DNA of 64,000 nucleotides from an uncultured Alphaproteobacteria bacterium (GTDB lineage: Bacteria; Bacteroidota; Ignavibacteria; OLB7). The notes below the pieces were generated by a model, which saw only the letters and a program-made list of their open reading frames with translations, had not been told where the DNA came from and did no database searches. The position numbers and the translations under genes were made by a program. Every line of letters starts with the position of its first letter. Position 1 is the stretch's first letter. This document shows, one piece after another, positions 22,862 to 28,607 of this stretch. Location: the NCBI GenBank assembly GCA_964455525.1, contig CAYVWR010000006.1:261388-325387 (forward strand). The letters run 5' to 3'.

Positions 22862-23596
22862 TTGGTCTGGACAAGTGGTTTTTCAGCTATGTGGCTACTA
22901 GCGAACGCGAAGAACGGGATCAGTTCGTACGAGCTGCACCGGGCAATCGGGGTCACCCAGAAGAGCGCATGGTTCATGCTACATCGAATCCGGTTGTCAA
23001 TGGAAGCCGGGACGATTGAGAAGAAGGCTATAGGTGTCTGTGAGGCTGATGAGACCTACATCGGTGGCCGAATCAGCAACATGCATAAGTCGAAGAAGGA
23101 GAAGATGCCAAAGGGCCGGGGGACGGTCGGTAAGGCTATCGTCATGGGGGGATACTGGAGCGAGGAGATGAGGGGAAATTGAGCAGCGTTCGGGCGAAGG
23201 TCATTGAGAACATCCAGCGTGAAACGCTCCACAAGGAGGTTAAGGACAATGTAGATCCCGGTAGTAGCATCTTTACGGATTCTTTGGCATCTTACCAAGG
23301 TCTGGAGGAGGAATACGTCCATAAGTTCGTGGATCATGCAGTTTCGTACGTGGAGGGGATGGTTCATACGAATGGGCTAGAGAACTTCTGGAGTTTGCTG
23401 AAGCGCACGGTACGGGGGACGTATACGCATGTTGACCCGGAGCATCTGTTTCGATAACCGGAAGGATGATGATCAAGGTAGGTTCCTGAATGTAGTGGGA
23501 TCATCAGAGGGGAAACGGATAACCTATAAGGAATTGAAAAAGAAGCCAGAGAAGGACGAAGAGAAGAAGAAGCCGAGGGAAAAGAAGAAGACGTAA
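22862..23596 (+). pseudogene. Decayed IS1595-family (ISXO2-like) transposase. The N-terminus (zinc-finger region) is missing and there are at least two frameshifts (near 23180 and 23455).
   Basis: Frame 2 reads WLLANAKNGISSYELHRAIGVTQKSAWFMLHRIR...EADETYIGG. Frame 1 reads ...HAVSYVEGMVHTNGLENFWSLLKRTV.GTYTHVDPEHLFR. A third frame reads RFL..KRITYKEL. These are the conserved IS1595 HTH/DDE-region blocks split across frames. Confidence 0.7.
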
Positions 23597-24081
23597 TGTT
23601 CCCTGCAATCGCGGGGATGATCCAATACACGGAAGGACCTCATACCCCCACAGGTTTCCAGTAATTCGCCTGTGGGTCACCTTTTCACCAGATATGGAGA
23701 AAGGCGTGTACGAGGTAACAGCCGTGGTCATCGCGATGGCTTATCTCGTCAGAGAGATCAGACTTCTGATCTCTGTCTGGCGTGGATAAGTGAACGGATG
23801 GCACAAAGTATGGTCCCCACTCCGGTGGGGGCCATGACTATATACTGATTATGGGTACATCGAAGAAAGAAAAGGAATCAGAGAGTGAGATGCCAGAGTC
23901 ATGGAAGAAATTCCTTGACATGGCTCGTACGGTTGTGAATGTTCCGAAGGAAAAGATCGAGAAGTTAGAAGAACAGAAGCAGAAGGAGCGTCCTCGTAGC
24001 CAGCAAGATCAAGAAAGGATAGCCGAATAGTTAATTACATCACCCCGGTTGATAAGCGAGTCATCACATTATAGCCGTTGT

Positions 24082-24534
24082 ATGATGAAATTCGATCAGA
24101 TTCACAATGATACCGATTGCAAATGCATCAACAATACTTGTCAGGAGAACACAAGTGATATATTCTGTCGAGCCTTAAAAGGTAAGGACCTTACTGCTAG
24201 TGACTTCATGTCATATTGGGAAGAAGGACGACGTCTCCCTGCACATATCAAGGCAAACTGTGAAGACACATGTGAACGAAAGGGTATATCCATCAACTTA
24301 CTCAATTCAGATAATGAAGAGAATGTCAAAGGAAAATTCAGTAGTATAGTTACGCGAAATATCAAGCCACAGAGAAAGATATTTACTCACTACTGTAAGT
24401 TCAAGTTTGCGGCAGACTGCGGAAAGCTCAAGCATACACCCGGACGTGGCGACCAGTATCATTACACATTTTACAAATGTGATGGGTTCAACATTAAACA
24501 GTTAGAGCATGTCAGCATACTTCCATTGAGCTAA
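24082..24534 (+). CDS. Hypothetical Cys-rich small protein, about 150 aa. The ORF track starts at TTG 24049. First gene of the island operon.
   Basis: Eleven Cys in the listed 161-aa ORF, including CKCINNTC, CEDTC, YCKFKFAADC and YKC, with no recognised family. The stop is followed 1 nt later by the start of the next gene. Confidence 0.45.
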   Translation: MMKFDQIHNDTDCKCINNTCQENTSDIFCRALKGKDLTASDFMSYWEEGRRLPAHIKANCEDTCERKGISINLLNSDNEENVKGKFSSIVTRNIKPQRKIFTHYCKFKFAADCGKLKHTPGRGDQYHYTFYKCDGFNIKQLEHVSILPLS

Positions 24535-24535
24535 A

Positions 24536-25807
24536 ATGTTTGAGATCGAACCATATCGAGAAGTACCAACCGACTTACCTGTTATTAAATCGGAGTACCA
24601 CGTTTTGCATTTCGATGATGAACCTATACTCTATTCTGGGAAGAATAGATATGGGGATATCGTACTTGGCTCCTCCGTTGATGAGGACTATGAAGGACGG
24701 ATTGAGCGTCATTATTGTGTGCCAGTAGACCTCGCTACATACTCGTCTTTCATCAATGGTAATATCAGTTACTATGATATCCTCTGTCAATCAAAGTCAA
24801 TATTCGTCGTTGACAGTGATTTCGATGGGAAGTCATTTCGTACGTACCTGCTACCTCTTGCTGATATCCCTAGCGATTATCTGCCAATGCCAGATTCTTT
24901 CTGTCCTCCCCAACCAGTATCTGAGTCTCTAGCACTATCATTATATGCAAGTCTTAAAGGAAAGCTAGCTGATCAGCACAAAGCCGTGCCATCAGAGCTA
25001 AGCCGGATACAACAGGCACTAGCAGACGTATTAGAAACCGCATTGAATAGCTTGCGGGAACTGACTCAACCCAATTTATATATTGCAGCATACTCTCCGT
25101 CAAGTTTCCGGATTCATTATGAAGTCCAGATGCCAAAACAACTTGACTTCGGCACTCAGGGTTACATCCGCTTCTATAATAAGCTTCTTCGCTTTTGCTT
25201 TAACAATCTGCCCACTGAGATGGCGAAGATTGTCGAGTTGACTCCTGAAATATCCTACAGGTTTGAAGAAATAGTGAATGAGTACAAAGACCTACATAGT
25301 ACAGTATGGGTTGAAAGTGGCAACAAGGAAGCATACTTTCGTGCGCAATTGATTGAGAATGTTGTTGAGATTGCGAACGAATTAAAAGATGCGTCTGATG
25401 CGATAGGTCAGCACTTCACGAATATCTCCATATTTGATGGGGAATCTGATGAAGCATCTAATGTCGTGGGAGTTATTGATGATAATTTTAGAGACGGTAT
25501 TGTTGAGGCTATTGAGATAGCTGGTAGTAAATATTCTAAATTTGAAGCCGATGCAACACCGCAGACGTACGAAATCCAAATTTATTCTTTTAATACTCAT
25601 TCAAGGAAGGGTAGCGCATACGTAATCGTCTCCAATGTTCATGGTGATCGAGAAGTTATTACGACTAGGATTACAGTTCTTGGTGATGAGATCTTAGAAG
25701 AAACGAAATACACAGAAAGCTTACATCACAAGAAAACCATTCAAATCCGGGCGACCGCACATCGAGTAAGGGGTAAGATTACTCGAATGGACATACTGTT
25801 TGATTAA
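24536..25807 (+). CDS. Hypothetical 423-aa protein, second gene of the island operon
   Basis: Long AT-rich ORF with no Walker, HKD or other recognisable catalytic motif. It is probably translationally coupled to the upstream ORF (TAAaATG). Confidence 0.5.
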   Translation: MFEIEPYREVPTDLPVIKSEYHVLHFDDEPILYSGKNRYGDIVLGSSVDEDYEGRIERHYCVPVDLATYSSFINGNISYYDILCQSKSIFVVDSDFDGKSFRTYLLPLADIPSDYLPMPDSFCPPQPVSESLALSLYASLKGKLADQHKAVPSELSRIQQALADVLETALNSLRELTQPNLYIAAYSPSSFRIHYEVQMPKQLDFGTQGYIRFYNKLLRFCFNNLPTEMAKIVELTPEISYRFEEIVNEYKDLHSTVWVESGNKEAYFRAQLIENVVEIANELKDASDAIGQHFTNISIFDGESDEASNVVGVIDDNFRDGIVEAIEIAGSKYSKFEADATPQTYEIQIYSFNTHSRKGSAYVIVSNVHGDREVITTRITVLGDEILEETKYTESLHHKKTIQIRATAHRVRGKITRMDILFD

Positions 25808-25986
25808 GTATCAACCCGTTTCATCACCTCAGCCAGCAGTTCATCAGGTTGCATTTTGAGCTTTCCTGCGATCGAAATGATCCCTCGCAGACACACCTGC
25901 CGTTCTCCTCTCTCTAGCCTTGATATGTAGGAATGATCCATTGTGTCATCATCCTCCAGATCAGCTTGAGTCAAACCAAGCGCCAT
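25804..25986 (-). CDS. XRE-family helix-turn-helix (HTH) DNA-binding protein (short, possibly N-terminally truncated)
   Basis: LGLTQADL.....SYISRLERGER.....L..IA..L is the XRE/Cro-type HTH pattern. It is convergent on and overlaps the 423-aa gene by 4 nt, and is divergent from the next ORF. Confidence 0.55.
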   Translation of the reverse strand: MALGLTQADLEDDDTMDHSYISRLERGERQVCLRGIISIAGKLKMQPDELLAEVMKRVDT

Positions 25987-26022: not shown

Positions 26023-26484
26023 GTGAAGCTGAACCCTGATGGAACATGGGCCGCACTGGATAACGATAGTACCAGCGGCTTCAATCCCAAGGGGGCGAAA
26101 TTCCTGACCGCTAGAACCAGTAAGCCCACTCAGCTAAAGGGTATGGCCGAGATCATGCCTGATGGTTTGTTTGGCTCTTCGTTCCAAAGCCAAGCTGAAC
26201 AATACTATGCGTTCCGAATCCAGTGTGAGGGATTCCCGGATGGTCGTAGCGTTATGGGCTGTATCCAGCGGGATACACCTGAAGGGGAACGACTCTTTGA
26301 GACATTAAGTGATGGTAAGAAACACAAGGTTGTTTTGGAAATGCGATTTCGGACCAAGGCAGAACAGAAACCGTCTCTCGTACGGATGTACGAGCAGGAC
26401 CCACCCCCTGATATGTTTTATGACAAGAGCCATGTACTAATCACCAAAATAGTTGCGATCGACACATGGTCAGTAGCCAATTAA
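26023..26484 (+). CDS. Hypothetical protein (GTG start in the ORF track), divergent from the XRE gene
   Basis: ORF in the AT-rich island with no recognisable domain. Confidence 0.4.
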   Translation: MKLNPDGTWAALDNDSTSGFNPKGAKFLTARTSKPTQLKGMAEIMPDGLFGSSFQSQAEQYYAFRIQCEGFPDGRSVMGCIQRDTPEGERLFETLSDGKKHKVVLEMRFRTKAEQKPSLVRMYEQDPPPDMFYDKSHVLITKIVAIDTWSVAN

Positions 26485-27293: not shown

Positions 27294-28607
27294 CTAGTCC
27301 ATGATGCGGCGCAGGAATGCCGGCTTATCGGCAGCCTGTTTCTGCTGCCGCAGTTCCTGGCGCTCATCGGCCTGTGGCTCCTCATCTGGACGTGCCTGCG
27401 GCTCCTCCTGACGGCGGGTAACATCATAGCCACCACGGTGGATGCCTGCGCCGCGCCGCATATATGCAGGCTCGTTATACTTCTCCAGATCCTCAAGCCC
27501 CACCGGCACATGATCGGCAACGGTATCGCGCGACTGGTTTGCGTACGGACGCGCCGCCTGCTGCTGCATGGGAATGCTCTGCGGCTGCGGTGCGGCTGCC
27601 GGAGCCTGTGCTGCGGCACGCTGTGGCGGAGCCTGGCGTACCTCCTTCGACTTGTTGAACCCTGTTGCGATGACCGTCACCATCATGGAATCGGCAAGGG
27701 TATCATCCAGCACAACGCCGAAGATGATATTTGCCTCGGCACCGACCGACTCATGGACGATCTTTACCGCTTCATCCACTTCCATCATGGTCAGATCGCT
27801 CGATGCCGCGATGTTGATAAGCACGCCTTCGGAGCCTGTAATGGAGATTCCCTCCAGCAGCGGCGAGCTGATCGCATTCTGTGCAGCCTGGGTGGCACGG
27901 CTCTCGCCAGCGGCGATTCCGGTTCCCATAAGCGCATCGCCCATGTTCTGCATCACCGTACGGACGTCGGCAAAATCGACGTTGACAAGACCGTGGCCGG
28001 TAATGATCTCGGCGATGCCACGGGTGGCATTATAGAGAACATCATCAACCTTATGAAACGCTTCCCTGAAGCCGGTCTTTTTATCGATGATCGAAAGCAG
28101 CTTCTGGTTTGGCACAACGATCAGCGTATCAACGTGCTCCTTCAGCTCCTTGATACCCAGATCGGCCTTGTCCTTTCGGGGCTTTCCCTCCCAATCGAAC
28201 GGACGCGTGACGATGCCGACAACGAGAGCGCCGAGTGAGCGTGCGATTTCCGCCACAACCGGAGCGCCCCCAGTGCCGGTACCACCACCCATGCCTGCGG
28301 TAACAAACACCATGTCGGTATTCGACAGAATCTGCGCCAATTCCTCACGATCTTCAACCACTGCATCGTGGCCGATCGATGGATTTGCACCAGCGCCGAG
28401 ACCACGCGTCAGTTCCTTCCCTACCTGGACCCGAAGCGGCGACTGATTTTTAGCAAGAGCCTGGAGGTCGGTATTAACCACGAGAAATTCGCAGCCTGAC
28501 AGGCCACGCTCAATCATGCTATTGACCGCGTTTCCTCCGCCGCCCCCGACTCCTACGATTTTGATTTTTGCTCCGTGATGCTCCACGGAACGATCGAGCT
28601 CGATCAT
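27294..28607 (-). CDS. ftsZ: Cell division protein FtsZ
   Basis: GVGGGGGNAVNSM and GGGTGTG tubulin signature, and a C-terminal linker plus conserved tail. Confidence 0.97.
   Translation of the reverse strand: MIELDRSVEHHGAKIKIVGVGGGGGNAVNSMIERGLSGCEFLVVNTDLQALAKNQSPLRVQVGKELTRGLGAGANPSIGHDAVVEDREELAQILSNTDMVFVTAGMGGGTGTGGAPVVAEIARSLGALVVGIVTRPFDWEGKPRKDKADLGIKELKEHVDTLIVVPNQKLLSIIDKKTGFREAFHKVDDVLYNATRGIAEIITGHGLVNVDFADVRTVMQNMGDALMGTGIAAGESRATQAAQNAISSPLLEGISITGSEGVLINIAASSDLTMMEVDEAVKIVHESVGAEANIIFGVVLDDTLADSMMVTVIATGFNKSKEVRQAPPQRAAAQAPAAAPQPQSIPMQQQAARPYANQSRDTVADHVPVGLEDLEKYNEPAYMRRGAGIHRGGYDVTRRQEEPQARPDEEPQADERQELRQQKQAADKPAFLRRIMD

Follow-up and report, generated by a model that had tools for sequence, protein, structure and literature searches.

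A conserved two-gene cassette whose larger protein shares its N-terminal domain with the toxin PD-T4-10B: a candidate toxin-antitoxin or abortive-infection module

The 64,000-nucleotide stretch of contig CAYVWR010000006.1 (assembly GCA_964455525.1) analysed here, hereafter the window, carries two adjoining genes on its plus strand, which we call gene A and gene B. Gene A (24082-24534) encodes 150 aa from an ATGATG start, or 149 aa when counted from the second ATG (24085), which is the start chosen by gene callers elsewhere; an in-frame TTG further upstream (24049) had no support in the family alignment. Gene B (24536-25807) encodes 423 aa, and at the A/B junction (24532-24538, plus strand) the stop codon of A and the start codon of B are 1 nt apart (TAA-a-ATG). 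A first-pass annotation made from the letters of the sequence had pointed out this spacing and proposed that the two genes function together, as a novel accessory or defence module of no recognisable homology. The spacing was confirmed, and the cassette is best read as distantly related to the E. coli system PD-T4-10, with its domains shuffled.

Relatives of both genes were collected first by sequence and then by locus. A word-indexed search with B gave 18 full-length relatives, 27-52% identical, one exact match aside. An exhaustive profile search over 1.84 billion cluster representatives gave 482 clusters at E <= 1e-3, of which 222 also passed E <= 1e-30; nearly all were about 420 aa long. 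Gene A used alone as query returned just two matches, and a profile built from the upstream neighbours of B returned at least 84 clusters, with lengths of 121-187 aa, mostly 141-150 aa. Independent loci were taken from metagenome and genome contigs reached through B, from contigs reached through the most divergent A proteins, and from viral contigs of IMG/VR. In all ~25 distinct loci, with no exceptions, an A homologue directly preceded a B homologue in the same orientation; two loci whose 5' side was lost at a contig end (L024 and L039) were left out of this count. Across relatives the two genes either stood 1 nt apart or overlapped by 4-23 nt, and such a tight junction, recurring in all related loci, is not a matter of chance.

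These ~25 loci span at least six phyla as well as viral contigs, on which five relatives were found. Among the hosts were Nitrospirota, many Bacteroidota, Acidobacteriota, Chlorobaculum, Limnohabitans and an uncultured gammaproteobacterium. The surrounding genes varied from locus to locus and included chemotaxis genes, mreB, fumarase, AraC regulators, VgrG, integrases and transposases. Since the flanking genes are different at every locus, the pair moves as a unit. One protein of 583 aa (P0135) combines, in a single reading frame, an A-family domain (residues 1-133) and a complete B-family protein (residues 145-581), and this fusion may be natural or may come from a frameshift or one-base assembly error at the overlapping stop and start. 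The strict synteny across phyla and the one A-B fusion support the conclusion that A and B are a co-functional unit, as the annotation had supposed. The alternative that A and B are unrelated neighbours, or spurious open reading frames (ORFs) in AT-rich foreign DNA, could draw on the signals around the cassette, where promoter- and terminator-like sites occurred only at chance level and no clear Shine-Dalgarno sequence was seen. It is excluded for practical purposes by the homologue and synteny data, since both proteins have large families of full-length homologues with conserved motifs, in strict synteny, and both gave confident structure models.

The AlphaFold2 (AF2) model of B was confident (predicted local distance difference test, pLDDT, 84.5; predicted template modelling score, pTM, 0.77) and contained three domains. 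Residues 1-128 (24536-24919, plus strand) form a beta-rich N-domain of DUF6575 type, followed by a conserved IPxDYLPxxDSFCP linker. Residues ~133-333 (24932-25534, plus strand) form an alpha/beta, ferredoxin- or palm-like domain with a three-helix insertion, which is DUF7946-like. Residues 336-423 with the stop codon (25541-25807, plus strand) form a DUF7947-like beta-barrel of five to six strands that resembles an oligonucleotide/oligosaccharide-binding (OB) fold; its predicted order is beta1-3, helix, beta4-5, and the helix carries a TKYTESL motif. With the window's own B, Pfam, NCBIfam and PHROGs gave nothing above threshold, and a sequence search of solved structures gave no match; DUF7947 reached 14.1 bits (gathering threshold, GA, 27) and DUF7946 gave no match. 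With the B family consensus, DUF7946 was matched at 28.4 bits (GA 27) over residues 178-321 and DUF7947 end to end over residues 340-417 (E 3.8e-4, 20.9 bits). Pfam DUF6575 was matched by 2 of 18 B members, the window's own B falling below threshold. All three families are of unknown function, and therefore membership in them adds no mechanism.

Residue conservation in the B family was counted over 149 members. The residues kept in at least 85% of members were mostly Gly and Pro, together with N37, S190 (149/149), D339, N353 and S395; the invariant positions of B are for the most part Gly, Pro and Ser, and no conserved acidic pair was found among these members. A reading of the middle domain as a cyclase or GGDEF domain (class III nucleotide cyclase, palm) was rejected because the conserved metal-binding acidic residues of such a domain are not there. 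The OB-like domain is the sole mildly basic part of B, with a family median isoelectric point of 8.1, and it may bind nucleic acid or another ligand. Isoelectric points did not separate toxin from antitoxin for A and B.

PD-T4-10 came out of a functional selection in E. coli and consists of two overlapping ORFs of unknown function; its B protein is toxic and is neutralised by A, deletion of A is not possible, and T-even phages are countered by abortive infection (Vassallo et al. 2022, Nat Microbiol; PMC9519451). The system is represented by the E. coli ECOR65 proteins RCO36089.1 and RCO36088.1 and by the PADLOC models PDLC04023 (A) and PDLC04024 (B), and we traced its locus through 48 nt of the A/B junction rebuilt from the published primers. 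Of 5426 complete E. coli genomes, 13 carried the locus. In NZ_CP019267.1 (2246500-2250020, locus L025) the pair sits in a P2-like prophage, between the replication endonuclease and portal genes; there the product of A (2246500-2247015) is a hypothetical protein of 171 aa, that of B has 363 aa and is annotated as 'DUF6575 domain-containing', and the two genes overlap by ATGA. An AIPR-family, abortive-infection-like gene follows directly after the pair. A tblastn search of PD-T4-10B against a phage collection gave no match.

The first protein-level link was between the window's B, residues 30-128, and PADLOC PD-T4-10_B (E 1.2e-7, profile positions 29-125 of 353). The same model (PDLC04024) was matched by all 18 first-round B relatives, with a best E of 1.4e-9, and by the B family consensus at E 4e-11 over profile positions 48-164. 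Profile comparison with hhalign placed the B family against the single PD-T4-10B sequence with 91% probability (E 1e-6, 27% identity over 100 columns), and with small profiles on both sides this rose to 96.6% (E 4.9e-10). The confident columns end at about residue 125 and take in the IPxDYLPxxDS motif. The N-domain of B, ~125 residues, is thus homologous to the DUF6575-type N-domain of the toxin PD-T4-10B. Together with the consensus matches to DUF7946 and DUF7947, this overturns, for B, the claim of no recognisable homology, and a module related to PD-T4-10B by its N-domain is not wholly novel. PD-T4-10B itself matched neither DUF7946 nor DUF7947.

The relation between the two small proteins was fainter. 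In 2 of 38 A members, PADLOC PD-T4-10_A (PDLC04023) ranked first among the families, at E 0.006. The A-family hidden Markov model (HMM) scored E. coli PD-T4-10A at 2.7 bits, a value reached by 23 of 2000 shuffles. For L034, the relative of PD-T4-10A that has diverged most, the score was 7.9 bits, and a single shuffle in 2000 came up to it, so that the shuffle test gave P ~0.001-0.01. The alignment with L034 pairs its C-x3-A-L-S with C64-x3-G-[IV]-S70 of A and its G-H-Y-D-F...F with H127-Y-x-F...F136, and the corresponding early segment of PD-T4-10A bears an invariant WRF. Because these weak signals come with a homologous partner domain and an identical gene organisation, homology of A with PD-T4-10A is probable, while it is not statistically established.

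Searches of Pfam, NCBIfam, PHROGs, PADLOC and the sequences of solved structures gave no match for the window's A. Conservation across its 84 homologues was informative: C13, C15, R30, D41, F42, E47, C60, C64, S70, H127, K132, D134 and F136 form a near-invariant set, each kept in 78-84 of them, and this pattern looks like that of an enzyme or a ligand binder. The small protein had been credited with 11 cysteines, and the count is 9 in the 150-aa form and 10 in the TTG-extended ORF. Four of them, C13, C15, C60 and C64, are kept in 81-84 of the 84 homologues in a CxC...Cx3C arrangement, which in cytoplasmic proteins is most likely a structural metal site. Since these four are invariant, this Cys4 cluster probably binds a structural metal, and a zinc-type site is plausible. 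The suggestion of a zinc-binding protein therefore survives in part; most of the cysteine motifs listed for it do not, and C20, C29, C105, C113 and C133 are not conserved. A HEPN-like R-x4-H spacing had also been remarked on in each protein (RKIFTH in A, RATAH in B). Among homologues, the position of R98 in A holds mostly K and that of H103 holds Y, H or N, while in B the position of R405 holds K, R, S or L and that of H409 holds K, T or R; the spacings are due to chance because the residues are not conserved among homologues, and library scans gave no match to HEPN families for A or B.

The AF2 model of A was also confident (pLDDT 91.2, pTM 0.86). Foldseek against the PDB gave no significant match, and the nearest structural neighbours, which are grey-zone matches, were almost all ADP-ribosyltransferase (ART) toxins. 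Those listed were Rhs1-CT, Tne2, BC2332, OspC3/CopC, Scabin, Tpt1/KptA, TreX, TreTu and pierisin, and further MbcT, DarT, RES/ParT, the pertussis, LT and diphtheria toxins, and SdeA. The predicted elements follow one another as in the ART core, with a strand at 27-32 bearing R30, a strand at 69-74 bearing S70 and a helix at 79-92, followed by three more predicted strands, the third of which (127-132) begins with H127. R30 and S70 are kept in 83-84 of 84 homologues and are 40 residues apart, a spacing like that of the cholera/pertussis clade. A is therefore predicted to have a compact ADP-ribosyltransferase-like fold stabilised by the putative Cys4 metal site, with R30 on strand 1, S70 on strand 2 and H127/D134 on strand 5 as an enzyme-like set, and it possibly acts as a catalyst. 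As a separate observation, the uncharacterised Pfam family DUF3581 gave weak matches in 8 of 38 A members (best E 0.0017; consensus E 0.11). In the DUF3581 profile they lie at positions 153-199, and in A they cover the strand with S70 and the helix after it; these matches are not interpretable.

The explanation we favour, with slightly better than even confidence, is that the cassette is a PD-T4-10-like toxin-antitoxin (TA) or abortive-infection module in which B is the effector and A its neutraliser. The early instinct that this was a toxin or defence system agrees with it, as B has a domain in common with the validated toxin PD-T4-10B. By analogy with that system, B is the presumptive toxic partner and we infer a phage-defence phenotype for the cassette. 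A, translated just upstream of B and translationally coupled to it, would neutralise B. In the uninfected cell A would hold B inactive, either by binding its N-domain or by an NAD-dependent modification, and neutralisation would probably run through the part common to both systems, namely the small protein and the DUF6575-type N-domain. Infection, or loss of the cassette, would lift the control by A, and B would then arrest the cell. The C-terminal DUF7946 and OB modules of B could represent an alternative output or a sensor. A narrower proposal, which we regard as improbable, is that A is an active zinc-stabilised ART-fold antitoxin whose NAD+-dependent modification of the DUF6575-type N-domain keeps the OB-domain toxin B, and likewise PD-T4-10B, inactive.

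Several results weigh against B as effector and A as neutraliser. The remaining ~300 residues of B have an architecture other than that of PD-T4-10B, so that homology does not run the full length, and since only the N-terminal ~125 residues align, toxicity is not simply transferable to B. Neither the window's A nor the A consensus matched the PADLOC PD-T4-10_A model, and the hhalign comparison of the A family with PD-T4-10A was not significant (E ~0.5), though the alignment was collinear. Within the predicted ART-like fold, the strand-5 position is H127, with D134 near, and the Glu of the R-S-E or H-Y-E triads is not evident. The conservation, enzyme-like in A and scaffold-like in B, fits A as the active effector equally well or better. 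Finally, most loci of the pair lie outside recognisable defence islands.

The conservation just described bears directly on a second explanation, the main rival, with the roles reversed, which we consider rather unlikely. A would then be a small ART-type toxin, like DarT, ParT, MbcT or the Tre effectors, and B its antitoxin, an immunity protein or a sensor; on infection A would be set free or switched on, and it would then act on nucleic acid or protein of the host or the phage by modifying it, or else use up NAD+. The structural neighbours of A, almost all ART toxins, speak for such roles, as does the contrast between the enzyme-like set R30, D41, E47, S70, H127, K132 and D134 in A and the near absence of conserved catalytic-type residues from B. 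The gene order would also suit a toxin-first arrangement, in which a small ART gene precedes that of its larger partner, as in DarT-DarG, and the OB-like barrel of B could serve as the sensor. However, A has no obvious catalytic Glu, its assignment to the ART fold is a grey-zone one, and B has its N-domain in common with the toxin PD-T4-10B. In PD-T4-10, the only relative to have been tested, it is B that is toxic and A that neutralises (PMC9519451).

The wider genomic context was then considered. In the six loci with precomputed Pfam annotation, the neighbours were mostly housekeeping genes, with occasional small TA pairs. PADLOC, run on 86 neighbouring ORFs of 12 further loci, found a high-scoring type II restriction-modification (R-M) pair and single matches to PDC-S04, SngC, BrxH, PtuB, NsnA and others. 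The idea that the cassette belongs to a defence island, part of the first-pass annotation, was thus borne out in part: some loci have defence-gene neighbours, and at most the relatives lie between housekeeping genes. Seen over these loci, the pair is a solitary, mobile unit of TA-like kind that sometimes lies beside defence genes and is not a strict resident of defence islands.

Such a distribution raises a third explanation, that of a selfish addiction or accessory module without a role in phage defence. The cassette would stabilise mobile DNA, or be regulatory or metabolic, and the likeness of the N-domain would reflect domain reuse. Most relatives stand singly among housekeeping genes, some near integrases, transposases or small TA pairs, the window's own cassette adjoins an insertion sequence (IS) remnant, and only ~30% of B is homologous to PD-T4-10B, all of which would suit it. 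We nevertheless judge it unlikely. The homologous PD-T4-10 defends against T-even phages and lies in a P2 prophage beside an AIPR gene, five relatives are on viral contigs, some loci have defence neighbours (the type II R-M pair and the candidates PDC-S04, SngC, BrxH and PtuB), and neither A nor B matches a metabolic or structural family in Pfam, NCBIfam or PHROGs. A PD-T4-10-like module with B as effector remains our preferred account of the cassette.

In the window, the cassette lies in DNA of distinctly low GC content: 41-47% at ~24-27 kb and 50-54% at 22-24 kb, against ~58% in the surrounding chromosome; for the insert with the two ORFs the value is 41-42%. To the left of it is an IS1595 (ISXO2-like) transposase remnant (22862-23457, plus strand), which is context outside the module. 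It is split by a frameshift into ORFs of 106 aa (22862-23182) and 92 aa (23179-23457), and its N-terminus is apparently gone. The description of an AT-rich, IS-adjacent island was accordingly borne out, and the data support horizontal acquisition of the cassette within a low-GC foreign insert. To the right of the insert is ftsZ (27294-28607, minus strand), the end of a cell-division gene cluster. As the insert lies directly downstream of ftsZ, the foreign DNA has integrated beside a core operon. Searches at the insert for tRNA genes and Rfam families found none, and no direct or inverted repeats were found bounding it.

Three small ORFs adjoin the cassette. One is an Xre/HTH_3 ORF of 60 aa (25804-25986, minus strand), convergent with gene B and overlapping its stop codon by 4 nt, which in library matches resembles the control proteins of R-M systems. 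Its ATG (25986) falls inside the HTH domain, and the in-frame codons upstream (region to 26133) read '...CAIVLRERR', a putative first helix that is preceded by no ATG, GTG or TTG. Because this first helix has no canonical start codon, the ORF may be a remnant; it may also be 5'-truncated or use a non-canonical start, it is possibly a regulator, and its membership of the module is uncertain. HTH_3 genes flank the pair in 2 of the 6 other annotated contexts. A jackhmmer search with the Xre/HTH_3 ORF found it only in the window and in one other locus (L006), and the precomputed Pfam annotation added one more; it is not a conserved third component of the module. The other two ORFs flanking the cassette are one of 153 aa with a GTG start (26023-26484), a singleton cluster among ~15 billion proteins that occurs solely on contigs of the organism of the window, and a Lys/Glu-rich one of 59 aa (23851-24030). 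Library scans gave zero matches for either.

These findings place PD-T4-10 in a wider setting. To our knowledge, no domain, fold or mechanism has been proposed for this validated anti-T4 abortive-infection system. It now appears as the rare enterobacterial tip of a far larger family of obligate gene pairs, which is found in several phyla and comprises hundreds of 50%-identity clusters. The common core consists of a small Cys4 protein and a DUF6575-type N-domain, and the C-terminal modules appear exchangeable. Current defence-finder models probably miss the A-B family: their B model is matched over no more than a quarter of its length, and their A model is not matched. The predicted structures offer the first concrete features to test, which are, in the small partner, invariant R, S, H and D residues set in an ART-like fold and, in the large one, an OB-like barrel. 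We know of no ART-fold antitoxin that has been described. If A were an active ART-fold enzyme that keeps B inactive, it would count as the first enzymatic antitoxin of ART type, with a logic akin to type VII. Such an A would supply a mechanism for PD-T4-10 and would tie toxin release to NAD+ depletion or ART inhibition caused by the phage.

Among known systems with an ART protein, DarTG, ParST, MbcTA and Res-Xre all use it as the toxin. Their partners (a macrodomain protein, an Xre protein, a small antitoxin) do not resemble B. Compared with the ARTs of these systems, A has no third residue of the H-Y-E or R-S-E triad and has a Cys4 cluster that theirs do not. The type VII TA systems HepT-MntA and TglT-TakA would follow the same logic as the cassette if A were both enzyme and neutraliser, in that the antitoxin chemically modifies the toxin; their enzymes have nucleotidyltransferase or kinase folds, unlike the predicted ART-like fold of A. 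The closest comparison is with PD-T4-10 itself. In both systems the first gene is small and the second larger, the two are co-oriented and abut or overlap, the second protein has a ~125-residue DUF6575-type N-domain, and the pair lies on mobile DNA. The small proteins are further alike in a collinear early-strand Arg, a C-x3-[GA][VL]S motif and a C-terminal H[YF]DF...D.F, although the similarity of A to PD-T4-10A is below statistical significance. In contrast to PD-T4-10B, with 363 aa and a C-terminal ~240 residues that gave no confident alignment, B has 423 aa with DUF7946-like and DUF7947/OB-like domains. PD-T4-10 is rare enterobacterial P2-prophage cargo, whereas the A-B family is found in Bacteroidota, Nitrospirota, Acidobacteriota, Chlorobiota and Proteobacteria.

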